Both the position numbers and the translations under genes were made by a program. Shown here piece after piece: positions 1,426 to 36,200 of a DNA stretch of 37,134 nt. How positions within the stretch are numbered: position 1 is the first letter of the stretch; every line of letters begins with the position of its first letter. The stretch comes from a virus (taxonomy: Duplodnaviria > Heunggongvirae > Uroviricota > Caudoviricetes), in the IMG/VR virus record IMGVR_UViG_2703719349_000005; one strand, 5' to 3'. The notes below the pieces were generated by a model. It saw only the letters and a list, made by a program, of their open reading frames with translations. It did not search any database and was not told the DNA's origin.

Positions 1426-2001
1426 TTACCTAACGTACTTAATTGTTAAACTTATAATTTTTCCAATTATTTCAACATCTTCTATCTTGCACTCGAAGGA
1501 TCTGTTTCCACCTTCAACGAAGATTCTTCCACCGGGTAAACGAGTAATGTCGCGGATTGTTATTTCGCCATCAATACTTATTACCCATTTACCATCACGT
1601 ATATCATCAAATTCTTTATCACAAATAAATTCAGAATTGTTATCTGTGATGACAAAAGGTTTTTTAAACGTAGAGGGTAGAAATCCCTTATCAAAAATAT
1701 AAAAACCGTCTTCACGCAAGGCACCATCAGATAATACATACTTAGCAACTTCCATCGTATTTGTATTACCTGAAGTTTGCTTTGAACCATGTCCAGTTGT
1801 GAGCCAATTAAGCGAGGTGCCCGTTTCAAGGGCGCACTGGATTACCCATTCTGCTGGGAATGAGTCACGCATGTAGCGTGTAGCGAGTGTACTTTTAGAG
1901 ATTCCTAAATGATCGCACAACGCCTGTCGAGTTTTGAATCCATAAGCTTCTACCATGCGCTCTATAGCGCCTCGTCCGCCTTTCTCCAAATTCATGGTCA
2001 C
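1426..2001 (-). CDS. cI: CI-like immunity repressor (186-type, ~190 aa, N-terminal HTH)
   Basis: 191-aa ORF facing int, with an HTH-like N-terminus (TRQALCDHLGISKSTLATRYMRD). Size and position match phage 186 CI rather than the 99-aa P2 C. Confidence 0.75.
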   Translation of the reverse strand: MTMNLEKGGRGAIERMVEAYGFKTRQALCDHLGISKSTLATRYMRDSFPAEWVIQCALETGTSLNWLTTGHGSKQTSGNTNTMEVAKYVLSDGALREDGFYIFDKGFLPSTFKKPFVITDNNSEFICDKEFDDIRDGKWVISIDGEITIRDITRLPGGRIFVEGGNRSFECKIEDVEIIGKIISLTIKYVR

Positions 2002-2039
2002 CCCAAGTGAACTTTTATCTTGACGATTTCATGATGCGA

Positions 2040-2068
2040 TCGTATGTTTATGGTGTTCACAAAATACA
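2040..2068 (+). promoter_or_regulatory. Candidate sigma70 early lytic promoter (pR-like): -35 TTGACG (2040-2045), 17-nt spacer, -10 TATGTT (2063-2068)
   Basis: Hexamers read directly in the repressor/apl intergenic region, oriented toward apl-cII. Confidence 0.35.
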
Positions 2069-2120
2069 AACGATCCGTATTCGTCCTGATTAATCATCAT
2101 TAAACGAGGAATGTTGCATC

Positions 2121-2342
2121 ATGAGACCTAACATTTCAATCACTCTTACCACGCCTCATGTGACTATTGAACGCTATAGCGAGCTGACAGGACTGTCCAT
2201 CGATACCATCAATGACATGTTGGCTGATGGACGCCTTATCCGTCACCGTTTGCGCAAAGATAAAAAACGCGAAAAAGTGATGATCAACATAGCAGCCATG
2301 ACCGTTGATGCGCTTTCAGAATGCAATCTAAACCTTAATTAG
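2121..2342 (+). CDS. apl: Apl/Cox-like small DNA-binding protein (excisionase / switch regulator)
   Basis: 73-aa basic ORF, first gene of the rightward early operon, divergent from the repressor. Assignment is by position and size only. Confidence 0.5.
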
Positions 2343-2368
2343 TTCGATTCTGAAATACATCAGAGGCA

Positions 2369-2884
2369 TTGACCATGTTTGATTACCAAGTTTCCAAACA
2401 TCCACATTTTGATGAAGCCTGTCGTGCATTTGCACTGCGCCACAATCTGGTGCAACTGGCAGAACGTGCAGGCATGAATGTGCAGATTCTGCGGAACAAG
2501 CTGAACCCAGCTCAGCCTCATTTATTAACCGCACCAGAAATCTGGCTGCTTACCGATCTGACTGAAGATTCAACGCTGGTAGATGGTTTTCTGGCACAGA
2601 TTCACTGCCTGCCATGTGTACCGATTAATGAGGTTGCAAAAGAGAAACAGCCGCATTACGTCATGAGCGCAACTGCAGAGATCGGACGTGTTGCAGCAGG
2701 TGCGGTATCTGGTGATGTAAAAACTAGTGCCGGTCGTCGTGATGCTATCAGCAGCATTAACTCTGTAACACGACTGATGGCGCTGGCTGCTGTTTCATTG
2801 CAGGCCCGTTTACAGGCTAATCCTGCGATGGCGAGTGCAGTTGATACCGTGACTGGCCTCGGTGCTTCATTCGGTTTGCTGTGA
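2369..2884 (+). CDS. cII: CII-like lysogeny establishment regulator (186 CII family)
   Basis: 171-aa ORF whose translation ([24 protein letters not shown]...[40 protein letters not shown]...) matches my recollection of 186 CII in size and sequence. Confidence 0.7.
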
Positions 2885-2891
2885 GGTGCTT

Positions 2892-3092
2892 ATGCTGACG
2901 AAAGAACCATCATTTGCATCGCTGCTGGTAAAACAAAGCCCGGCAATGCACTACGGTCACGGCTGGATCATGGGTGAGGATGGTAAACGCTGGCATCCGT
3001 GCCGTTCACAAGATGAATTGCTGGCAGAACTATCTACGAAAAAACGGGGGAACAAATGGCTATTGAAGGCGCTGCGGCGACTGTTCCATTAA
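2892..3092 (+). CDS. Hypothetical early protein (~66 aa)
   Basis: ORF with GAGG 5 nt upstream of ATG at 2892, starting just after the cII stop. No recognisable motifs. Confidence 0.4.
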   Translation: MLTKEPSFASLLVKQSPAMHYGHGWIMGEDGKRWHPCRSQDELLAELSTKKRGNKWLLKALRRLFH

Positions 3093-3397
3093 GCCCCGGT
3101 GAACGCCTGAATGGACTTAATCACATAGCGGAATTAAGGGCGAAAGTTTTTGGCCTGAATATTGAGTCAGAGCTTGAGCGGTTTATTAAAGATATGCGTG
3201 ATCCACGGGATATCAATAACGAACAAAATAAACGAGCACTGGCAGCCATATTCTTTATGGCAAAAATTCCGGCTGAACGTCATAGCATCAGCATCAATGA
3301 GCTGACCACTGACGAAAAGCGGGAGTTGATTAAAGCAATGAATCATTTTCGTGCAGTGGTGAGCTTATTTCCCAGACGGCTAACCATGCCGAATTAA
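3056..3397 (+). CDS. Hypothetical early protein (113 aa)
   Basis: ORF in the early operon; no recognisable motifs. Confidence 0.45.
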   Translation: MAIEGAAATVPLSPGERLNGLNHIAELRAKVFGLNIESELERFIKDMRDPRDINNEQNKRALAAIFFMAKIPAERHSISINELTTDEKRELIKAMNHFRAVVSLFPRRLTMPN

Positions 3398-3464
3398 CCA
3401 ACTAATGAAATTAATGGCGTAAACCCGCCGGGTATCCCTTTATCTAAATTCAGGAGAATTGATT

Positions 3465-3698
3465 ATGCGTAATATTGAAATCCTCACGACTAAAACCGGA
3501 CCGGATGATGCAGGGCTTAATATTTTACTGACAGAGGCTCGTCTGGAAGAACGCCGGGCAAGGGCTGAAGCAATGGCAGCTCGCCTTGATAGCCTGGCGT
3601 GTCATATCTCATCCCGTCAGCTAAACCACGTGGAAGCGGCAGAACTGCTGCGTGTGACTGCTGAAGCAATCCAGAACGAAGCGCAGGAGATCCACTAA
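3465..3698 (+). CDS. Hypothetical early protein (77 aa)
   Basis: AGGAG-like site upstream of ATG at 3465; coiled-coil-like sequence. Confidence 0.45.
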   Translation: MRNIEILTTKTGPDDAGLNILLTEARLEERRARAEAMAARLDSLACHISSRQLNHVEAAELLRVTAEAIQNEAQEIH

Positions 3699-4776: not shown

Positions 4777-5603
4777 AAGAAATGCACCACGGAATTCATC
4801 ATTTCCATGGGACGCCTGTCTGGGGAAGTGCTGGCGACGTTCATCGTATTGCGGTGAGCGGAGCTGGTGCTTTCGTCTCCTATGTACGACCAGATCAGAT
4901 TGCGGCGTCCATTCAGCACGCTCAGGTCGTTGGCATTGATAACGGCGCATTTTCTGCATGGGGGCGTGGGCTAAAAATTAACTGGAGTGATTTTTATAAA
5001 TGGCTCCTGAACTATTACCACCATCCTAAGGTCGCTTTTTTTGTCATTCCTGATGTTGTGGACGGAGGTGAACGTGACAATGATGCCCTGATAAACGAAG
5101 TTCCGAAAATGTTCTACGGGAAGGCAACTCCCGTCTGGCATCTGCACGAGTCAATCGATCGGCTTATCGAGTTATGTCGTGAATGGCCTCGTGTCTGCTT
5201 TGGATCGTCTGGTGAATATGCGGCTATTAGAACTGCGCACTGGCATCGTCGTATGCAGGACGCTTTTGAAGCAATTTATTGCCGACACAATTTCAAAACA
5301 GCTGTTCATGGTTTGCGCATGCTTGACGGTCGTGTGTTGGGAAATTACCCACTGGCGACTGCCGACAGTACAAATCTTGCCTGCAATGTCCCCAAATTTA
5401 ATAGCAAATATCCTGAGCTTACGCGGGCTATTCAGGAGGCTGAGTATTCGCGCAATCTGACGGAAAAGGAGCTGAAAGCTGTCATTCTGAAAAACCGTTG
5501 CGCAATTTTAAAAGGTGCAATTGAAGCTGTTCGCCCACCTTCAGTTTCTGACTGGCTGTCGAATGGTTTGCAGCCTTCACAGCTCGAACTGGAGATTGCG
5601 TAA
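4773..5603 (+). CDS. Conserved phage protein, possibly TGT-fold / DpdA-like (DNA 7-deazaguanine transglycosylase-like)
   Basis: 276-aa ORF overlapping the dam stop (GTGTGA; GTG at 4773 or ATG at 4782). Weak resemblance to tRNA-guanine transglycosylase motifs: [10 protein letters not shown] (cf. DSGGFQ), [15 protein letters not shown]. No C-terminal zinc motif. The family call is tentative. Confidence 0.4.
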
Positions 5604-7975
5604 TGAACTACAGCTATTCCTGGAATGCTGAGAAAAAAGCAATCAATCCTTACGTAGAGACAGAAGAGCAATCTTCAGTTTCTGCGCTTTCAAACCTGAT
5701 CGCTCTGTACGCTGCCGATAACGAGCAGGAACACCTGCGCCGCGAGGTACTGAGTGATCAGGTCTGGGAGCGTTATTTCTTTAATGAATCCCGTGATCCT
5801 GTCCAGCGCGAAATGGAGCAGGATAAGCTCATTAGTCGGGCAAAGCTGGCGCATGAGCAGCAGCGTTTTAATCCAGATATGGTCATTCTGGCGGACGTCA
5901 ATGCCCAGCCTTCCCATATCAGCAAGCCGCTGATGCAACGTATTGAATACTTCAGCAGCCTTGGCAGGCCAAAGGCTTATTCCCGCTATTTGCGTGAGAC
6001 GATTAAGCCATGTCTGGAACGGCTGGAGCATGTACGCGACAGTCAGCTATCCACTTCTTTTCGCTTTATGGCAAGCCATGAAGGGCTGGACGGCCTGCTG
6101 ATTCTGCCTGAAATGAGTCAGGATCAGGTGAAACGCCTGTCCACCCTGGTAGCTGCGCATATGAGTATGTGCCTTGATGTAGCTTGTGGTGATTTGTATG
6201 CCACCGATGATGTTAAGCCAGAAGAAATCCGCAAGACATGGGAAAAGGTGGCTGCAGAAACCCTGCGACTGGATGTCATACCGCCTGCGTTTGAGCAACT
6301 CCGCCGGAAAAGAAACCGCCGCAAACCTGTGCCTTATGAACTCATCCCGGGTTCGCTGGCGCGTATGCTGTGCGCCGACTGGTGGTATCGGAAATTATGG
6401 AAGATGCGTTGCGAATGGCGGGAAGAGCAGTTGCGTGCTGTCTGCCTGGTCAGCAAAAAAGCATCTCCCTATGTCAGCTATGAAGCCGTGATGCATAAAC
6501 GTGAGCAGCGCCGTAAGTCGCTGGAGTTTTTCCGTTCTCATGAACTGGTGAACGAAGACGGCGACACGCTGAACATGGAGGATGTGGTAAACGCCAGCAG
6601 CAGCAACCCGGCGCATCGCCGCAACGAGATGATGGCCTGTGTTAAAGGCCTGGAGCTTATCGCGGAAATGCGTGGTGACTGCGCCGTTTTCTACACCATC
6701 ACCTGTCCGTCACGTTTCCATTCCACGCTAAATAACGGCAGGCCAAACCCGACCTGGACCAACGCGACAGTAAGACAAAGCAGTGATTATTTGGTCGGCA
6801 TGTTTGCTGCATTTCGTAAGGCGATGCACAAAGCCGGATTGCGCTGGTATGGCGTGCGGGTGGCTGAGCCGCATCATGACGGTACAGTTCACTGGCACCT
6901 GTTGTGTTTTATGCGCAAAAAAGACCGCCGCGCCATCACTGCATTACTGCGTAAGTTTGCCATTCGTGAAGACCGCGAGGAGCTGGGTAATAACACGGGA
7001 CCACGCTTTAAGTCTGAGCTGATAAACCCGCGCAAAGGTACGCCAACAAGCTACATCGCGAAATACATCAGTAAGAACATTGACGGGCGTGGTCTGGCTG
7101 GTGAGATCAGCAAGGAAACGGGTAAATCCCTGCGTGATAACGCTGAATACGTTAATGCCTGGGCGTCTCTGCATCGTGTTCAGCAATTCCGCTTCTTTGG
7201 TATTCCGGGGCGTCAGGCTTACCGTGAACTGCGATTGCTGGCTGGTCAGGCGGCAAGGCAGCAGGGGGACAAAAAAGCAGGTGCGCCGGTACTGGATAAC
7301 CCACGCCTTGATGCCATCCTGGCTGCTGCTGATGCTGGCTGTTTTGCCACCTACATCATGAAGCAGGGCGGCGTGCTGGTTCCCCGCAAATATCACCTTA
7401 TCAGAACAGCTTATGAAATTAACGAAGAGCCGACCGCCTATGGCGATCACGGTATTCGTATTTATGGCATCTGGTCACCCATTGCAGAGGGTAAGATCTG
7501 CACTCATGCAGTGAAGTGGAAAATGGTTCGTAAAGCCGTTGACGTTCAGGAGGCGGCAGCCGACCAGGGCGCTTGCGCCCCTTGGACTCGTGGCAATAAC
7601 TGTCCCCTTGCTGAAAATTTGAACCAACATGAGAAAGATGAATCAGCAGATGGGGATACCAGAACGGACATTACCTGCATGGATGACAAGGAATTGCACG
7701 ATTACCTGCACAGTATGAGCAAAAAAGAGCGCCGGGAACTGGCAGCAAGATTGCGCCTGGTTAAACCGAAACGGCGTAAAGACTACAAACAGCGAATTAC
7801 AGAGTATCAGCGTCAGCAGCTCGTCTATGAACTGAAGTCCAGAGGATTTGATGGCAGCGAGAAAGAGGTCGATTTGCTCCTTTGCGGTGGCAGTATTCCG
7901 TCAGGAGCAGGCCTGCGTATCTTCTATCGGAACCAGCGTTTGCAGGAAGATGATAAGTGGCGGAACCTGTATTAA
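5603..7975 (+). CDS. A: Replication initiation protein A (rolling-circle nickase)
   Basis: 790-aa ORF at the P2 gene A position, with HxH-type metal motif ([10 protein letters not shown]) and a tyrosine region ([11 protein letters not shown]) typical of gpA. Confidence 0.88.
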
Positions 7976-8792: not shown

Positions 8793-9600
8793 TTATTTAG
8801 AAAGGTACTTATCTCTAAGTTGATTCAGTCTGTCAGCATCGCGTTCTGAAAACTCGGCGTCACCATAGATCGATTTCCCATCTGCGTCTTCAAGGCCAAT
8901 GACTGTGACGGTAAATATAGCATCAGCCGGAACTTTAAGTTTTCCCCAATCAGAGTATCTATTAGGGGCTAATTTCCAGTTGGCTTTCTCACCTGGTTCC
9001 AGACCTCCAGAAATTTTATAGTTGAAGACGTCAGAGAACCAAGGGACGCTTCTTCCTGGGCTGGCAATAACTCCTTTGAAGAATACTCTGGCAACCGCTT
9101 TGTCTGTTCCGTTTTCAACGCTAATATCCAGAATTGGCTGATCATTGCCGTAATCCTCTTTCTGGAAATAAAAACGGGAACGTTCGACCTTGAAGGCTTT
9201 CATTTTTTCCGCAGCCTGTGTTGCAGAGGTTTGTTTGGCTTCCAGTTCTTTTATTTCTTGCAGAGCCTGTTCTTTCTCTCTCTTCTCACGCTCAAGGCGA
9301 ATAGTTTGTGCGTAATTTATAACCTCATCACCAGTTTTACCTTCCAACGCTGACTTAATTTTTGTTTCGTAGACGTCCCCAGAAGACGTTCCAGCCTGCA
9401 TTAGCTCTCTCATGTTGATTTGGCTAAAGGCAACGACTTTAACTGCATCATCAAACTGAGCTTTTTTATCTGCAGGTAAGGACTCTCTTACTTTTTGAAT
9501 GGACTCTTTCATCGACTGATCGCTTGATGCATCGATCTTCGGTTTGTCACAAGCAGTAAGCAGCAGAGCAAAAGCAATTACGCCAGTTAATTTCTTCATA
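8793..9600 (-). CDS. Lipoprotein with central coiled-coil (269 aa), unknown function
   Basis: Likely start is ATG at 9600 (MKKLTGVIAFALLLTACDKP, lipobox LTAC). Central EREKREKEQALQEIKELEAKQ coiled-coil and a beta-rich C-terminal half. The six-frame ORF extends to 9671 but the lipobox start is preferred. Confidence 0.6.
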
Positions 9601-10128
9601 TCCCTATCCCAATCGTAAAAAAACAAGGCTAATCCTAACAGGATTAGCGGGCATGACAAACTCATAGCCATATAGGTGTGCTGTATAAATTAGCGGGATG
9701 AGAAAGCCTGCACAGACCCTCATGTTGAAACTTGATTTTAGCTCAAAAGAGCTGACACTAAATAACTGCGCGGAATAATGCTCCACTTTCGGTTAGCCCT
9801 TGGCCCTTGGCCCTTGCTGGGTAAGGCGTGGGGCCGTTTTCTTCGCCTGATCCTGCTGTATCTGGCCTACAGTAGGTTGTCCTTACGCGACATGCCACAT
9901 GTCAGTAAACGGCAGGTGTAGCAGTATTAGACGCAGCTATTTAGTGTGTATTAAGCTGGCTCATATTTATGACTGGTTTCAAGGTTTGACCGATTTTCAT
10001 GTCATGCATGTCTATGCTGCATGAGTTCGCATGATCGTTTGAGGATCGGTTTGGCTAAGACATGCCAGAACTGGCGGGCTTTTGCTCATGTCATGCAGGT
10101 GCATGAAAACTACTACATAAAGCGGGCA

Positions 10129-10147: not shown

Positions 10148-10273
10148 CGCGCGCTTAAGGATAAATTGAAGTTGATTTAATTTTTCGACATGGATAATCT
10201 TAACTACGTATGATTATTGATAAAAAATAAACATAAACAATTGTAGCGGATCTTAAAACTTATTAGGATTAGT

Positions 10274-11335
10274 ATGCTTAAAACAAATAAGGTATTTATT
10301 GACACACAAACGTACGTAAAGGCTGGTCTTCATTTTGAGGGGGTAGCATTTAAAGCTTTCCATGAATTATGTGCGAAAGGTGATTTAGTCTTAATTACAA
10401 CTACAGTTGTAGAGAGAGAAGTAAAAGGTAAAATAGAGGAATCAATAAAGGATGCTCTGCAGGCTATAAACACAGTACAAAGAAAAGCTAGGCTTTTGAA
10501 TAGTATTGATAATGGACCGCTCCATGATTTTTTTCAGCAATTTAACGAACATGAAATTCACGAAGCAGCACAAAAAGTTTTTGATGATTTTTTGAAAGGA
10601 TGTCACGCCAAATTAGCTACAATAGAAGTGATAGATCTTAATGAGGTTTTAGATAAATACTTTGGCAAAGAACCACCATTTGGGCAAAATAAGAAAAAAA
10701 GTGAGTTTCCTGATGCAATCACTTTAGCTGCGGTAGAGCGATTTGTTAATGATGAAGATGTGTATATCATTTCTGAGGATAGTGACTTAAAAAATTATTG
10801 TGATGGTAAAAACAATCTTCATCAAATTGATTCACTTGATAAGTTTCTAGGTGAATACAATACGCATACAAACGAATTAAGTAATAAATTGATGCAGTTT
10901 ATCGAAAGCAAACGTGAAGACATAAGAGCGGACGTAATTGCCCAACTCAATGATGCCGATGGATATAACGTTTCAACTTGGGAAGACGCTGAATTGGATT
11001 CATTTGAAGTCGTCAATATTGATGACTTTGAACCATCAATAATTAAGATTAACAATAATTATTGTCTAGCGACCTTCTCTGTTTCTGTAGATTTTGAAGT
11101 TACTGTTTCTGGTCCAGACTTTAATAATGGGTATTGGGATAGCGAAGATAAAGTAATGATTCCAATGGAGACAACCACACGAACTGAAGTTCAAGAGATT
11201 AGTTTCGATATTGAAATTGAAGTTATGTATGAAATCGAGGATGGTGAATTAACAGATATCGCATTTGATGTGAATATTGATAAGTTATCCCGAGGGATTG
11301 AGTTCTCTATTGAAGAAAATAATTTTGAATATTAA
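10274..11335 (+). CDS. PIN-like nuclease-domain protein with acidic C-terminal domain (353 aa); candidate defence / exclusion cargo
   Basis: N-terminal VFIDTQ (Asp in strand 1), VVEREV, SEFPDAITLAAV and ISEDSDL acidic motifs are consistent with a PIN fold. C-terminal ~180 aa is D/E-rich and beta-rich. Very AT-rich. Confidence 0.5.
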   Translation: MLKTNKVFIDTQTYVKAGLHFEGVAFKAFHELCAKGDLVLITTTVVEREVKGKIEESIKDALQAINTVQRKARLLNSIDNGPLHDFFQQFNEHEIHEAAQKVFDDFLKGCHAKLATIEVIDLNEVLDKYFGKEPPFGQNKKKSEFPDAITLAAVERFVNDEDVYIISEDSDLKNYCDGKNNLHQIDSLDKFLGEYNTHTNELSNKLMQFIESKREDIRADVIAQLNDADGYNVSTWEDAELDSFEVVNIDDFEPSIIKINNNYCLATFSVSVDFEVTVSGPDFNNGYWDSEDKVMIPMETTTRTEVQEISFDIEIEVMYEIEDGELTDIAFDVNIDKLSRGIEFSIEENNFEY

Positions 11336-19280: not shown

Positions 19281-19674
19281 AGCGGTGCCTTATGTCCGCA
19301 ATAACCCGGACAAACTGCATCTGTTTGTGGATAACGGTTCGCTGGTTGCCACGGGGGCCAGCTCCATGTCGTGGGAGTACCGTTACACCCTGAACGCGGT
19401 GATTGAGGATTTCAGCGGCGACCAGAATCTGCTGATGGCCCCGGTTTTGCTGTGGCTGAGGGATAACCAGCCCGATGCCATCAATAACCCGGCGTTACGG
19501 GAAAAGCTATTCACCTTTGAGGTGGATATTTTGCGCAACGATGTCTGTGATATCAGCCTTAACCTGCAACTGACGGAGCGTGTGCTGGTCAGCACTGACG
19601 GCAGTGTGTCGAGCGTTGAAGCGGTAGCGGAACCTGATGAACCTGAAGAAATGTGGACGGTGAAATGTGGCTGA
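19243..19674 (+). CDS. R: Tail completion protein (gpR)
   Basis: Likely GTG start at 19243 (VNKPQSLRHALNKAV...), which aligns with the recalled P2 gpR N-terminus (MLKPDSLRRAL...). Confidence 0.78.
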   Translation: MNKPQSLRHALNKAVPYVRNNPDKLHLFVDNGSLVATGASSMSWEYRYTLNAVIEDFSGDQNLLMAPVLLWLRDNQPDAINNPALREKLFTFEVDILRNDVCDISLNLQLTERVLVSTDGSVSSVEAVAEPDEPEEMWTVKCG

Positions 19675-20104
19675 ACTGCAGAAGGTGGATGAGTGGCTGG
19701 CGGCCTTGCTGGCGAATCTGGAGCCTGCCACACGCCAGCGTATGATGCGGGAACTGGCGCAGGAGTTGCGCCGCAATCAGCAGGAGAATATCAGGCTGCA
19801 GCTTAACCCTGATGGCAGCGGCTTTGAGCCGCGCCGGGTAGCAGCCCGCAGTAAGAAGGGGCGCATCAAACGCCAGATGTTCGCCAAATTGCGCACTAAT
19901 AAATACCTGAAAACTGCCGCCACAGCGGATTATGCCTGCGTGTATTTTGATGGAAAAGTCCAGCGCATCGCCTGTGTACACCACTATGGACTGCGTGACC
20001 GTGTTAGTCGAAGAGGTTTAAAAGTACAGTACCCTGAGAGAAGGCTTTTAGGATTTACTAAGGATATTAGTAACTTGAACTTGGGTGTTTACTTAAAACG
20101 CTAA
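19667..20104 (+). CDS. S: Tail completion protein (gpS)
   Basis: 145-aa ORF at the P2 S position; last ~20 codons become AT-rich (see findings). Confidence 0.8.
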   Translation: MAELQKVDEWLAALLANLEPATRQRMMRELAQELRRNQQENIRLQLNPDGSGFEPRRVAARSKKGRIKRQMFAKLRTNKYLKTAATADYACVYFDGKVQRIACVHHYGLRDRVSRRGLKVQYPERRLLGFTKDISNLNLGVYLKR

Positions 20105-20249
20105 AGTAAATAGTGGGTTAAGAGAATTAGTGGAGGGAGACTTTATCGTTCTACATAAGATACCTTGCTTGAATATACTATAAAGCTCTTTTTTTGAGAT
20201 TAATCTTGTTGTACTTTAATGTCTTCACCTCACTAATGGAGCTAATTTT

Positions 20250-22208
20250 ATGATAGTAGGGATTTTTTTAAGGTATTTTAAAACATACAACGGAAATCAT
20301 TACATACCGTTATCTTCTGGAAGTCAGTTTTGTGGAATTGTTGGTAACAATGGAATTGGCAAAAGTTCTGTTCTTGAGGCTTTAGATTCGTTTATTAATA
20401 ACAAACCATGGAATATTAATTCTTCATTTAAAAGAACCTCCAGTGACAGACCTTCTCCACATATTGTTCCTTTATATCTTATAAAGCGAGAGGAATTACA
20501 TGAAGATCATCATGCTAAAGCTGAAATCTTAACGCAATTAGTATTAGAATATAGCAATAGTAATGCTGATGTTACATTGACGCCAACAACACGAAATATA
20601 ATTAATACGTTTTTTGAACATATTAACAAATTAAAAAGAAATTTAAATCTCCAAGATTATTTTTTGATCCCTCTGGGTGTCGAGAAAGATGGTGATGTAA
20701 GTATTTCGATTCTTAATGGGAAGAGTTTATGTCGACTTTTGGAGGTTGATAATCCCGATAATAAAGTTTCGAGCGAGTTGCTTAGTGAGCACTTTGGGTA
20801 TTTATTACATCATGTCCGCCATAAGTATGAATATATATATATTCCAAAGGATATAGACTCTGAATCGTTTACGAAGCTAGAAACAAGTGAAGTACAAAAG
20901 TTGATGGGTGAGTCTTTAGAGCAGATAATTAAAGATAGAATATCTGATAGAACCATAAGTCAAATCAATACAGGGCTTGCCAAATTTCTGGATGGTGTTG
21001 AAGAGGAGCTTGAAGAATATGGTTATAGAACATCTGGCGAGAGACAATCGCGATTAAAAAAGAAAGATGTTTATAATTTGATTATCGAAGCATTCTTCAA
21101 GGTTAGGAAATTAAATAAAAAGCAGAATTCAGGTTGGATTGAAATTAGCTCGCTAAGTTCAGGGGAGAAGCAACGTGCAATAATGGATATTGCATATGGG
21201 TTTCTTACCAATCATCGAGAAAATGGCGATAATCTGATTATTGGAATTGATGAGCCAGAATGTTCTCTTCATATGTCTGCATGTTTTGAACAATTTGAAA
21301 AGCTCTATTCTATTAGTGGTATATGTGAACAATTAATATTTACTTCACATTGGTATGGCTATCTTCCAACCGTCGAAAATGGATGTACCACAACTATCCT
21401 TAAAACAGATTCAACTCATCATTTTGAATTATATGATCTTGCCAGTTATAGAGAAGAAGTCAGGAAGAAAGTAAAAACCTCTTCCCCGGGTATGCCATTT
21501 GATATAAAAATAAAAAGTGTAAATGACCTTATACAATCCATAATATCTAGCTGTTTGGCTGAGAAACCTTACAATTGGTTGATTTGTGAGGGTACTACAG
21601 AAAAAATATATCTTTCGCATTATCTAAAGGACTTGGTAGAAAATAAAAGGCTAAGGATTGTGCCTGTAGGGGGAGCTAGTGAAGTTAAAAAAATATTTAA
21701 GCATTTAGAAGCTTCTTATGAAGAGTTCAAAAAAGACCTCAAAGGAAAAGTGTTCTTACTAACCGATACAGATTCAGAGTTGGTGTCATATGATACCCCA
21801 GTTATGCCGCATGTTGTTTGTAAGCGAATTGTTAGTGTAGGTGATTCAGTGAAGTTGGTTGATATTTCTTCCAATCCAGTTTCTCCTGCAACAGAAATAG
21901 AGGATTGTCTTAATCCTGTATCGTTTATAGAGGCTTTAACATCATTTTCTTCACGTTTTCCTGAGCTTCAGGCATTGCTGCCTAATAGTAATGTTATGAT
22001 AGATGAAAGACATTCATCGTTTGCTGCGATGGATTTGTCACCCAAGAACAAAAAAACGCTTGATGCTTTTTTTGACCGTGAAGGGATTAAGTTTGATTTT
22101 TCAAAGGAATATATTTCAATCTGTGAGCGAAATGAGCGGAAAAGGCCAGAGTGGATTGCCAAAATTGAAAATTTTTTTATAAGTGATAAACCTGTAAAGT
22201 TTAATTGA
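20250..22208 (+). CDS. OLD/GajA-like ABC-type ATPase fused to Toprim-like nuclease domain (652 aa); candidate antiphage cargo
   Basis: Walker A GNNGIGKSS, ABC-signature-like LSSGEKQ, Walker B LIIGIDEPE, H-loop-like TSHW. C-terminal Toprim-like acidic motifs WLICEGTTEK, IVPVGG, FLLTDTDSE. Strongly AT-rich relative to flanking phage genes. Confidence 0.65.
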   Translation: MIVGIFLRYFKTYNGNHYIPLSSGSQFCGIVGNNGIGKSSVLEALDSFINNKPWNINSSFKRTSSDRPSPHIVPLYLIKREELHEDHHAKAEILTQLVLEYSNSNADVTLTPTTRNIINTFFEHINKLKRNLNLQDYFLIPLGVEKDGDVSISILNGKSLCRLLEVDNPDNKVSSELLSEHFGYLLHHVRHKYEYIYIPKDIDSESFTKLETSEVQKLMGESLEQIIKDRISDRTISQINTGLAKFLDGVEEELEEYGYRTSGERQSRLKKKDVYNLIIEAFFKVRKLNKKQNSGWIEISSLSSGEKQRAIMDIAYGFLTNHRENGDNLIIGIDEPECSLHMSACFEQFEKLYSISGICEQLIFTSHWYGYLPTVENGCTTTILKTDSTHHFELYDLASYREEVRKKVKTSSPGMPFDIKIKSVNDLIQSIISSCLAEKPYNWLICEGTTEKIYLSHYLKDLVENKRLRIVPVGGASEVKKIFKHLEASYEEFKKDLKGKVFLLTDTDSELVSYDTPVMPHVVCKRIVSVGDSVKLVDISSNPVSPATEIEDCLNPVSFIEALTSFSSRFPELQALLPNSNVMIDERHSSFAAMDLSPKNKKTLDAFFDREGIKFDFSKEYISICERNERKRPEWIAKIENFFISDKPVKFN

Positions 22209-22217
22209 TAAATGGTC

Positions 22218-22236
22218 GCAGGGGAAACCCTGCGAT
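22218..22236 (+). terminator. Stem-loop after the cargo gene (TCGCAGGG-gaaa-CCCTGCGA)
   Basis: Perfect 8-bp inverted repeat with a GAAA loop 10 bp after the stop; no clear U-tract. Confidence 0.4.
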
Positions 22237-22243
22237 ATTCTAC

Positions 22244-22318
22244 TAACCTCTAACCTCTAACCTCTAACCTCTAACCTCTAACCTCTAACCTCTAACCTCT
22301 AACCTCTAACCTCTAACC
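22244..22318. repeat. Perfect heptanucleotide microsatellite (TAACCTC) x ~10.7
   Basis: Read directly: ten full tandem copies of TAACCTC plus a partial copy, between the cargo gene hairpin and the P_V dyad. Confidence 0.95.
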
Positions 22319-22346
22319 AGAGGGTTTATTTCTTTTCAAAGAAAAT

Positions 22347-22364
22347 TGTATCTTCTTTTATACA
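22347..22364 (+). promoter_or_regulatory. Late-promoter activator dyad TGT-N12-ACA upstream of V
   Basis: TGTATCTTCTTTTATACA read directly, about 50 bp upstream of the V start. Confidence 0.5.
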
Positions 22365-22411
22365 AAATAAGCTGTTTGAAGAGGTTGTGTAAAGCATGGA
22401 AAAATAATCTT

Positions 22412-22990
22412 ATGAATACACAACTCACAGAAATCATGCGCCTTATCACCAACCTGATCCGCACAGGGGTAGTCACTGAAGTGGACAAGGAAAACTGGCT
22501 TTGTCGGGTGAAAACGGGCGACCTTGAAACCAACTGGATTAACTGGCTGACGCTGCGCGCGGGTAATGCCCGCACATGGTGGCGACCATCGGAAGGTGAG
22601 CAGGTGGTGCTGCTGAGTCTGGGAGGTAATCTGGAAACAGCCTTTGCGCTGCCCGCCATCTATTCGAATCAGTTCGCACCACCGTCGACGTCGGCAGATG
22701 CCTGCGTGATAGAACATCCTGACGGTGGCTGGTTTGAATACGAACCCGCCACTGGGCGCTGGTATGTCAGGGGCATCAAATCAATGGTCATTGAGGCCGC
22801 CGACAATATCACCCTGAAAACCAGTGAGTTTGTGCTGGAGGCTGACCGCACGCGTATTAACAGCGAAGTGGTGATCAATGGTGGCGTTACCCAGGGCGGC
22901 GGAGCGATGAGTTCTAACGGGATCGTGGTTGATGCGCATCAGCATACTGGCGTTCTGAAAGGCGGCGACACAACCGGAGGCCCGGTATGA
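22412..22990 (+). CDS. V: Baseplate spike / assembly protein (gpV)
   Basis: Start at ATG 22412 (MNTQLTEIMRLITNLIRTGVVTEVDKENWLCRV...), gpV-like. Confidence 0.85.
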   Translation: MNTQLTEIMRLITNLIRTGVVTEVDKENWLCRVKTGDLETNWINWLTLRAGNARTWWRPSEGEQVVLLSLGGNLETAFALPAIYSNQFAPPSTSADACVIEHPDGGWFEYEPATGRWYVRGIKSMVIEAADNITLKTSEFVLEADRTRINSEVVINGGVTQGGGAMSSNGIVVDAHQHTGVLKGGDTTGGPV

Positions 22991-34514: not shown

Positions 34515-36200
34515 TTATCCTAATCCTGGCCATACCATGACGATGATTGTCCCTGCCAGCGTCAGCAGGACGTTGGCGATTGCGTAGGTGCCCGCATAGC
34601 CCAGCGCAGGGATGTTACTGCGAGCTGTATCACTGATGATCTCCATTGCCGGCGCGCAGGTGCGTGCGCCCATCATTGCGCCGAACAACAGTGCGCGGTT
34701 CATTCGCAATACATAAGCACCGAACAAGAAACAGATAACCACGGGCACAAGACTGACAATTAATCCGGCAATCAACATCTGACCGCCAATCGCGCCCAGG
34801 CCGTTATTAATACCGCTACCGGCGCTCAGACCAACGCCTGCCATAAACACCATCAAGCCGAACTCTTTCACCATGCTTAATGCACCTTGCGGAATGTAAC
34901 CGAAGGTCGGGTGGTTAGCACGCATAAAGCCCAGCATAATTCCGGCGAATAACAACCCGGCAGCGTTCCCCATGCCGAAACTGAATGTGCTGAACTGGAA
35001 GGTGATCATCCCGATCATCAGCCCAATAACAAAGAAGGCGCAAAATGCCAGCAGGTCAGTGACCTGGCTGTGAATCGAGATAAAGCCGATGCGATCGGCG
35101 ATGGTTTTTACGCGACGGGCATCACCGCTGACTTGTAAAACGTCACCTTTGTTAAGCACGACGTTGTCATCTATCGGCATCTCAATCTGGCTACGAATGA
35201 CGCGGTTAAGGAAGCAACCGTGATCGGTCAACTTCAGTTGTGCGAGACGTTTACCTACAGCGTTATGGTTTTTAACGACCACTTCTTCAGTGACGATACG
35301 CATGTCGAGAAGGTCACGATCGAAAACTTCTTTACCGTTACGGAAGCTGGGATCGAGTCGGGCATGGGCGTCGGGATAGCCTACCAACGCTATTTCATCG
35401 CCCATTTGTAGCACGGCATCACCGTCTGGATTTGCCAGAATCCCGTTACGTCGAATACGTTCAATGTAGCAGCCGGTTTGTCGATAAATACCCAGTTCAC
35501 GCAGATTTTTGCCGTCGGTCCAGGCCACCAGCTCCGGGCCGACGCGATAGGCGCGGATCACCGGTAAATAAACCTTACGGTTGGCATCAGTGTCCAGGCC
35601 ACGTTCGCGGGCGATTTGCTGGGCGCTGGTCTGTAAGTCCTGATGCTGCAATTTCGGCAAGTAACGCGCACCAACAATCAAACTCACCAGACCGATTAAA
35701 TAGGTTAAGGCATACCCGAGGCTCAGATTATCCAGTGCCAGTGAGAGCTGCCTGCTTTCCATGCCGAAATGACGCAGTGTATCGCCAGCACCGACCAGAA
35801 CCGGTGTCGACGTCATAGAGCCTGCTAACATACCGGCCGTCAGGCCAATATCCCAGCCAAACAGCTTACCTAACCCTAAGGCGATCACCAGCGCACTGCC
35901 AACCATCACCAGTGCTAACATTAGGTAATTTTTCCCATCGCGAAAAAAAATGGAAAAAAAGTTCGGTCCGGCTTCGACCCCGACGCAGAAAATAAACAGC
36001 ATAAAGCCAAGATTAAGCGCATCGGTGTTAATGCTGAAATGTTGTTGGCCTAATAACAGCGATACGACTAAAACGCCAATGGAATTACCCAGTTGGATCG
36101 AACCAAGTCGTAACTTTCCGAGACATAGCCCAAGCGCGAGGACCACAAATAATAACAGAATGTAATTCCCATTTAACAATTCGGCGACGTTTATATTCAC
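34515..36200 (-). CDS. ybjL: Putative transport protein YbjL (AspT/YidE/YbjL family, two TrkA-C domains)
   Basis: 561-aa translation ([36 protein letters not shown]...) matches E. coli YbjL as I recall it. Confidence 0.88.

Follow-up and report, generated by a model that had tools for sequence, protein, structure and literature searches.

A hypervariable heptanucleotide repeat between a candidate defence gene and the gene V late promoter of a P2-like prophage

The stretch of DNA analysed here (the window; 37,134 nucleotides) consists of an entire P2-like prophage and a portion of host flank. Its landmarks include an integrase gene (1-1110), gpA (5603-7975) and a host permease gene (34515-36200). 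The region of interest has the order R, S, low-GC cassette, V and W and contains the following features.

19667-20104, plus strand: homologue of P2 gene S (tail completion; Pfam Phage_tail_S, E = 1.4e-36), which marks the conserved left edge of the S-V accessory hotspot.
20105-22411, plus strand: variable low-GC cassette, defined by its composition profile and containing the cargo gene, a hairpin, the repeat array and its own copy of the late promoter P_V.
20250-22208, plus strand: cargo gene encoding a 652-residue OLD-like ABC-type ATPase with a TOPRIM domain (Pfam, PADLOC).
22215-22236, plus strand: hairpin 1, with a 9-bp stem, a GAAA loop and no U-run after it (RNA folds, alignment).
22244-22318, plus strand: hypervariable microsatellite (TAACCTC)10 followed by TAACC (sequence, TRF, predicted RNA fold).
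22310-22337, plus strand: predicted hairpin 2, in which CCTCT of the last unit pairs with AGAGG across an AACC loop, followed by GTTTATTTCTTTTC (terminator scan, fold).
22347-22364, plus strand: TGT-N12-ACA dyad, the Ogr/Delta-type activator site of P_V (motif, alignment to P2).
22412-22990, plus strand: gene V for the baseplate spike, which opens the V-W-J-I-H-G late operon and marks the conserved right edge of the hotspot (Pfam Phage_base_V and Apex; PGAP at the identical locus).

The S-V interval, where orf30 is located in the P2 record, is known as a hotspot for accessory and defence genes among the tail genes (PMC13586616). In the window, it is occupied by a cassette with a GC content of 0.31-0.37, compared with 0.55-0.59 in the flanks. 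The cargo gene is transcribed in the same direction as V and ends in TGA. Its product matches the Pfam families AAA_15 (2e-17) and OLD-like_TOPRIM (2e-6), the best PADLOC matches are AriA (8.5e-22) and Old (2.4e-11), and the gene is a candidate anti-phage defence gene by sequence. The 5' region of the gene (window 20195-20215, …GATTAATCTTGTTGT…) is conserved with chromosomal, non-phage homologues of the Pantoea type (L258, L254), and the 3' hairpin and spacer are present only in P2-borne copies. The cargo gene thus seems to move together with its own promoter region, and its 3' end seems to have been gained in a phage context. In the genome of APEC 16-1068 (NZ_CP087287.1; L013 1552-3509), the cargo is annotated as two coding sequences (1552-1968 and 1965-3509), an apparent frameshift, and a 7-unit array is retained. 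Elsewhere in the window, a DUF6694 protein and a PIN_12-domain protein are encoded between gpA and the Q-side genes (8793-9671, minus strand, and 10274-11335, plus strand), at the cos-proximal old/tin hotspot of P2-like phages. Neither protein has a PADLOC match, and the pair is possible uncharacterised defence cargo.

The repeat tract begins shortly after hairpin 1, from which the first TAACCTC unit is separated by ATATTCTAC. Ten full units (22244-22313) are followed by the partial unit TAACC (22314-22318), and the TRF call (22243-22318) has a period of 7, 10.9 copies, 100% matches and a score of 152. A preliminary description of this DNA had reported ten full copies of a perfect 7-bp repeat, placed after a hairpin, with the cargo gene on one side and a P_V dyad at 22347 on the other. 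Direct reading and TRF bear out the count and the perfection of the repeat, and the placement is correct, so that the existence, purity and position of the tract are established. The hairpin is real as well (nine pairs, one of them G-U, with a GAAA loop; -17.9 kcal/mol, z = -5.7), and the start coordinate given earlier, 22218, falls within it. The periodic GAGG motif described on the minus strand, (GAGGTTA)n, is present but is simply a property of the repeat unit. Within the window, the motif is confined to 22244-22320, and the three-unit 21-mer has a single site (0 matches expected, 100 shuffles). A coding role for the tract was excluded: stop codons occur in all six frames, TAA on the plus strand and TAG on the minus strand every 7 nt, and the minus strand has no start codon.

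The rarity of such a repeat, also claimed earlier, was examined in 875 kb of P2-like DNA comprising the window and 80 related loci. The tract is the sole array in this set with a period of at most 9 and at least 4 copies, a degenerate GGT run aside, and the only one with a 7-bp unit and at least 5 copies. No other real microsatellite was found in the 875 kb, and the claim holds.

The late promoter lies downstream of the tract. The centre of the dyad is located 56.5 nt before the ATG of V. In the P2 record, the activator site is annotated at 10239-10266, and transcription of the V operon starts at 10308, the first base of the V ATG. The segment from the dyad to the ATG aligns with P2 without gaps and at an equal distance from the ATG. 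Because the spacing is the same and the alignment to the annotated P2 activator site is gap-free, the earlier assignment of the dyad to P_V is supported. By analogy with P2, the V mRNA of the window prophage is probably leaderless, and relative to this putative start the array would span positions -168 to -94. The array ends 29 bp from the activator dyad and lies outside the dyad, the -10 region and the core promoter. A three-codon mini-ORF (ATG GAA AAA TAA; 22396-22407), preceded by AGAGG at 22381-22385, is found just 5' of the V ATG and has the counterpart ATG GGA AAA TAA in the Cronobacter-type cassette described below. The mini-ORF may be coincidental, and it overlaps the -10 region expected for P_V. 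A promoter-like site on the minus strand (22393-22364) was rejected, as its 9/12 match is at chance level (9 sites found, 8.8 expected).

The copy number of the repeat was compared among 24 independent assemblies of the S-cargo-V cassette, including 14 complete E. coli genomes from different laboratories. All 24 alleles are perfect, and their immediate flanks are identical. The alleles contain 3 (one assembly), 4 (one), 5 (six), 6 (five), 7 (three), 8 (two), 9 (four), 10 (one) or 11 (one) units. The complete E. coli genomes contain 5-9 units by direct count, and their match lengths differ from that of the query by multiples of 7; alleles of 3, 4, 5, 6, 6, 6, 7, 9 and 11 units come from other assemblies, one IMG/VR contig and two metagenome contigs. 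No allele of fewer than 3 units is observed among the 24, although the search pattern used for the metagenomes would match one unit or more. The longest allele (11 units) is carried by a mosaic or rearranged P2-like element (L246). Directly 5' of lysB, this element has a phage_tail_N fragment together with genes of the Com (zinc ribbon) and Mom families (435-1266), in place of the L, X, holin, lysozyme and LysA genes of the other carriers.

Twelve sequences whose flanks do not differ at any position over 6.3 kb contain 5, 5, 5, 5, 5, 6, 6, 6, 7, 7, 8 and 9 units. Moreover, the window (10 units) is flank-identical to L245 (6 units), L010 (8 units) is flank-identical to L244 (9 units), and all three backbone haplogroups, which are ∼2% apart, vary in unit number. 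Because unit number ranges from 5 to 9 with no flank difference over 6.3 kb, the tract is a hypermutable VNTR. It mutates orders of magnitude faster than single bases; at least four changes against 0 substitutions in 6.3 kb put its rate of change, at a rough estimate, at least ∼10^4-fold above that of single-base substitution. The preliminary description had listed a slippage-prone tract among its possibilities and had proposed a comparison across related prophages, in which an invariant copy number would have spoken against it. The observed 3-11 copies, in unit steps between identical flanks, strongly support the slippage option, and the polymorphism is established.

The copy-number differences are almost certainly not artefacts of assembly or sequencing. 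One Logan contig (L251) does end inside the hexamer array of a related cassette, but in the 24 independent assemblies all length differences are exact multiples of 7 between perfect flanks, and the arrays (21-77 bp) are shorter than a single short read.

The tract resembles bacterial VNTR/MLVA loci, such as those of E. coli, in its short, perfect, head-to-tail units, in its location in horizontally acquired non-coding DNA and in whole-unit changes between otherwise identical isolates; purity and whole-unit variation between constant flanks, which define such loci, are both observed. A point of difference is that arrays with a 7-bp unit and at least 5 copies are rare in P2-like DNA, the tract being the sole case in the 875 kb surveyed. 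Slipped-strand mispairing is the accepted mechanism for VNTR loci. We infer that 7-bp units of the tract are likewise gained and lost by slipped-strand mispairing during replication, far faster than point mutations arise, and otherwise identical prophages would then come to differ in copy number only. A search of papers with a 14-mer of the repeat returned no bacterial context and a single irrelevant zebrafish paper, and a search with the 7-mer returned primer matches only. A keyword search of papers on the P2 hotspot found no mention of a tandem-repeat tract.

The contingency loci of Neisseria and Haemophilus offer a second comparison. There, too, a hypermutable tract that changes in reversible unit steps lies beside a conflict gene, here OLD-like. 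In Neisseria nadA, a TAAA repeat tract is located upstream of the promoter. In contrast, the TAACCTC tract is not in an ORF, a core promoter or a promoter spacer; it follows a stop codon and a 3' hairpin and precedes the next promoter start by 94-168 nt. Its position is therefore not that of a contingency locus.

The S-V hotspot was compared in 75 close P2-like relatives from IMG/VR. The site is empty in 41 of them, with an 83-bp spacer, and the remaining 34 carry ∼20 other cassettes. The microsatellite is absent from all 41 empty sites and from the ∼20 other cassettes, the exception being a contig with the same cargo, and its absence elsewhere at the hotspot is established. Each S-V cassette has its own strongly diverged P_V region, in which the TGT-N12-ACA dyad is kept at a fixed distance from the V ATG throughout (L162-L241). 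In the window, cassette-specific sequence likewise extends beyond the array, through P_V, to the V ATG. Since each cassette carries its own copy of P_V, the late promoter is part of the swapped module. The cargo region is nearly invariant between backbones that differ by ∼2-7%, and divergence resumes inside S and ∼200 bp into V, which indicates exchange by homologous recombination in the flanking genes. The left boundary of the cassette contains no unit-like sequence, and no flanking direct repeats were found beyond chance 11-14-mers.

These observations bear on the earlier suggestion that the repeat is a recombination or insertion scar marking the cargo boundary, and on the accompanying proposal to look for it beside other cargo genes. 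That the tract is a scar or hotspot which marks or drives S-V cassette exchange is extremely unlikely. The tract does lie near the right end of the low-GC cassette, but the motif has no copy at the left boundary and is absent from the 41 empty sites, from the ∼20 other cassette types and from the three cassettes with 84%, 77% and 59% homologues of the cargo gene. Moreover, near-identity runs from inside S to ∼200 bp into V, placing the boundaries within these genes and pointing to homologous recombination there. An att-like element or target-site duplication was rejected, as a matching repeat at both boundaries and a link to other-cargo junctions are both absent.

The window cassette shares with other P2 S-V cassettes its location between S and V and its exchange between backbones, and many of these cassettes are defence-like. 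It differs from P2 orf30 and most other S-V cassettes, which are antiparallel to V and have no repeat, in being co-directional with V, and it is the only one with a microsatellite. In all but three of the ∼20 cassette types (L162-L241), the longest ORF is antiparallel to the late operons, like P2 orf30. The window cassette is one of these three co-directional types. Of the other two, one (L193/L197/L212) contains a canonical intrinsic terminator before P_V, and in the second (L219) only 13 nt separate the stop codon from the dyad. The canonical terminator suggests that insulation is plausibly needed between a co-directional cassette and P_V. The 3' end of the cargo gene was absent from INPHARED and PLSDB, a distant-mode search included, and no deposited phage genome carries this cassette.

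Homologues of the cargo gene occur in P2-like S-V cassettes of other Enterobacterales. The Cronobacter-type cassette, with a cargo that is 91% identical, contains the same hairpin (loop GTGA), followed by TATTTTAA, one TAACCTC, a (TGCCTC)n array and a right flank homologous to that of the window. The hexamer array has n = 14, 13, or 7 plus an interrupted unit (L250 5002-5085, L256 and L255). As it follows the same hairpin, (TGCCTC)n represents a second, different VNTR at the orthologous position, and the existence of this parallel array is established. The 84% and 77% homologues have no array and instead place a 26-30-nt C/T-rich, G-poor spacer (1 G) before the dyad. Both have a hairpin at the equivalent place, that of the 77% homologue being of different sequence (-20 kcal/mol). 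No array is present with the 59% homologue (P2 context) or with the chromosomal Pantoea-type homologues.

Alignment of the P2-borne homologues shows that the position of hairpin 1 is kept in all of them. The fold energies are -17.9 kcal/mol in the window, -17.0 in the Cronobacter type, -10 in L252 and -20 in L257, the last with a different sequence. Hairpin 1 is stable, yet the sequence that follows it in the window is AUAUUCUAC and not a U-run, and a U-run is absent in all four lineages. The folds suggest that hairpin 1 is the 3'-end or terminator stem-loop of the cargo transcript. Hairpin 2 overlaps the end of the array and consists of five predicted pairs (CCUCU-AACC-AGAGG, then GUUUAUUUCUUUUC; -6.2 kcal/mol, z = -1.2) with a U-rich tail. 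In the predicted fold, it looks like a weak intrinsic terminator with a repeat unit as its 5' arm. It resembles intrinsic terminators in that the last unit and the flank form a hairpin followed by a U-rich tail, and departs from them in its weakness. The Cronobacter-type counterpart is CCUCUGAU-AGCUA-AUCAGUGG, followed by CGUAUUUCAUUUC (-8.4 kcal/mol, z = -2.3).

The two lineages that have an array share an arrangement in which the final unit pairs with the 3' flank ahead of a U-rich tail; the reverse complement of CCTCTG is CAGAGG, the right flank in E. coli. Because in each case the final unit supplies the 5' arm of a hairpin with a U-rich tail, we infer that the arrays are slippage amplifications of a terminator arm. 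The ancestral cassette would have had a small terminator-like hairpin 3' of the cargo gene, with a pyrimidine-rich 5' arm (CCTCT...). This arm, together with the adjacent TAACC/CCTCT proto-repeat, would have been amplified by slippage independently in the two lineages, as a 7-mer in E. coli and as the TGCCTC 6-mer in the Cronobacter type. Microsatellites would then have been born from a terminator arm twice, in sister cassettes.

The sense strand of the tract has an unusual composition. Its RNA contains no G and 43% C and is wholly unpaired in the predicted fold. At n = 10, 33 C and 0 G are found in 78 nt (C-G = 33, compared with a mean of -2.6 and an sd of 6.3), making the tract the top C>G sense-strand window of the 37 kb, and the excess climbs steadily with unit number. 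A Rho-dependent terminator combines a C-rich, G-poor rut site with a pause (PMC6407284, PMC12360218), and a rut site is characterised by 70-80 nt of unstructured RNA that is rich in C and poor in G (PMC6407284). The 10-unit allele provides such an untranslated, unstructured C>G stretch of ∼70-80 nt after a stop codon, and alleles of 3-5 units do so weakly. Under the RhoTermPredict rule that C residues are regularly spaced every 11-13 nt (PMC6407284), the tract fails if the rule refers to a C-to-C distance of 11-13 nt, and it passes if 11-13 is the number of intervening bases; with either reading, ∼11% of the background windows pass. The tract shares with Rho-dependent terminators a G-free, C-rich, unpaired RNA located downstream of a stop codon. 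The 3' end of a Rho-dependent terminator may be trimmed back to a stem-loop, and the predicted layout of hairpin 1 without a U-run followed by a C>G tract is compatible with such a terminator. We know of no described class in which a tandem microsatellite serves as a terminator 5' arm or as a rut site.

The tract could accordingly be read as a tunable terminator or insulator, which would act as a rut site, as a source of alternative 5' arms for hairpin 2, or both. The number of units would then set read-through into the leaderless V operon or the 3'-end stability of the cargo mRNA, and the source of the read-through may be either the defence gene or the late O operon upstream. This reading is unlikely. 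The unpaired state of the array, its extreme and n-dependent C>G composition and its resemblance to published rut features of 70-80 nt (PMC6407284) argue for it. So do the lack of a U-run after hairpin 1 in four lineages, where the following spacers are G-poor even without an array (1 G per 26-30 nt), the canonical intrinsic terminator before P_V in the only other well-separated co-directional cassette, and the two independent expansions at one site. However, the C-spacing result depends on how the 11-13 rule is read, with its ∼11% background, and alleles of 3-5 units, far below 70 nt, are common. Moreover, the 84% and 77% homologues manage with a 26-30-nt spacer, and hairpin 2 is weak. A version in which the element is selected for phase variation is decidedly unlikely. 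In that case, slippage would alter termination of a constitutive defence gene before the V operon, or protection of the mRNA 3' end, lysogens would be heterogeneous, and the 6-mer and 7-mer expansions would be convergent. If n does govern termination after the defence gene and before the tail operon, this would be a rare case in Enterobacteriaceae of phase variation at the 3' end of a gene.

An effect on the late promoter itself, with n altering the distance or helical phase to the Ogr site or the shape of the upstream DNA, is very unlikely. The array ends only 29 bp 5' of the dyad, and each 7-bp step would turn the upstream DNA by approximately two thirds of a helical turn. Nevertheless, nothing is conserved 5' of the array save the hairpin of the cargo gene, which the homologous cassettes place 26-30 bp from the dyad. 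In addition, P_V functions at empty sites, where the whole S-V spacer is 83 bp long and nothing beyond about -83 is available to it, and the P2 activator site is annotated at about -69 to -42 only.

The preliminary description had also considered a protein-binding array. An iteron-like array or a DNA structure, such as a two-tetrad G-quadruplex on the GAGG strand, would draw on the periodicity of CCTC/GAGG and on the CCTC core common to the 7-mer and 6-mer arrays. The sequence lends this option no support, and it is highly improbable: the units are contiguous, without the spacers of known iterons, the 7-bp and 6-bp units differ in helical phasing, and copy number is unconstrained, ranging freely from 3 to 14. 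Moreover, no Rfam match was found at E <= 1 on either strand of 22100-22480. To our knowledge, no P2 regulator recognises CCTC.

Overall, the tract is probably a hypermutable simple sequence repeat (VNTR) in the non-coding spacer of a defence-gene cassette, a by-product of slippage that originated from a terminator arm and is neutral or nearly neutral. It is most likely a passenger, and any transcript of it would be the trailing 3' part of the cargo mRNA. Counted against neutrality are the two different microsatellites at the orthologous site with none other in the 875 kb of P2-like DNA, the lack of alleles below 3 units and the extreme C>G composition after a hairpin without a U-run. The twin arrays at one site exceed what simple neutral evolution would lead one to expect and could reflect selection for a long G-poor tract or a local mutational hotspot. 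The tract is of a known type and a useful marker, and none of the observations calls for a function.

The tract is a previously unremarked VNTR in a P2-like prophage that is widespread in E. coli (ExPEC/APEC). The exact cargo protein is indexed in 462 blocks of the sequence collection. The tract could discriminate between very close isolates with this prophage; in assembly and variant calling, it will give rise to breaks or spurious indels.

The motif also occurs outside this context. A 21-mer scan identified 25 loci in IMG/VR and at least 120 genome loci in unrelated phyla, of which only one shares the flanks (L024, the same contig as L170). Same-composition shuffled control heptamers have 8 and 27 loci in IMG/VR, compared with 25 for TAACCTC. 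As the control heptamers are about equally frequent, the shared motif is a coincidence and not homology, and a motif-specific meaning of TAACCTC was rejected on this ground and because the flanks are unrelated. Cyanobacterial STRR and the arrays of Bacteroidota and Acidobacteriota contain the identical (TAACCTC)n, in up to 94 copies, in unrelated flanks and hosts. Matches to the array are enriched in Bacteroidota, Cyanobacteria, Acidobacteriota and Planctomycetota. Very long arrays in unrelated genomes include one of 94 copies in a contig of IMG/VR that derives from an isolate genome (L028 4143-4798), 36 copies in Mucilaginibacter sp. SMC90 (L076 6371-6622), and 31 and 21 copies in other MAGs (L150 3040-3253 and L119 2678-2824).
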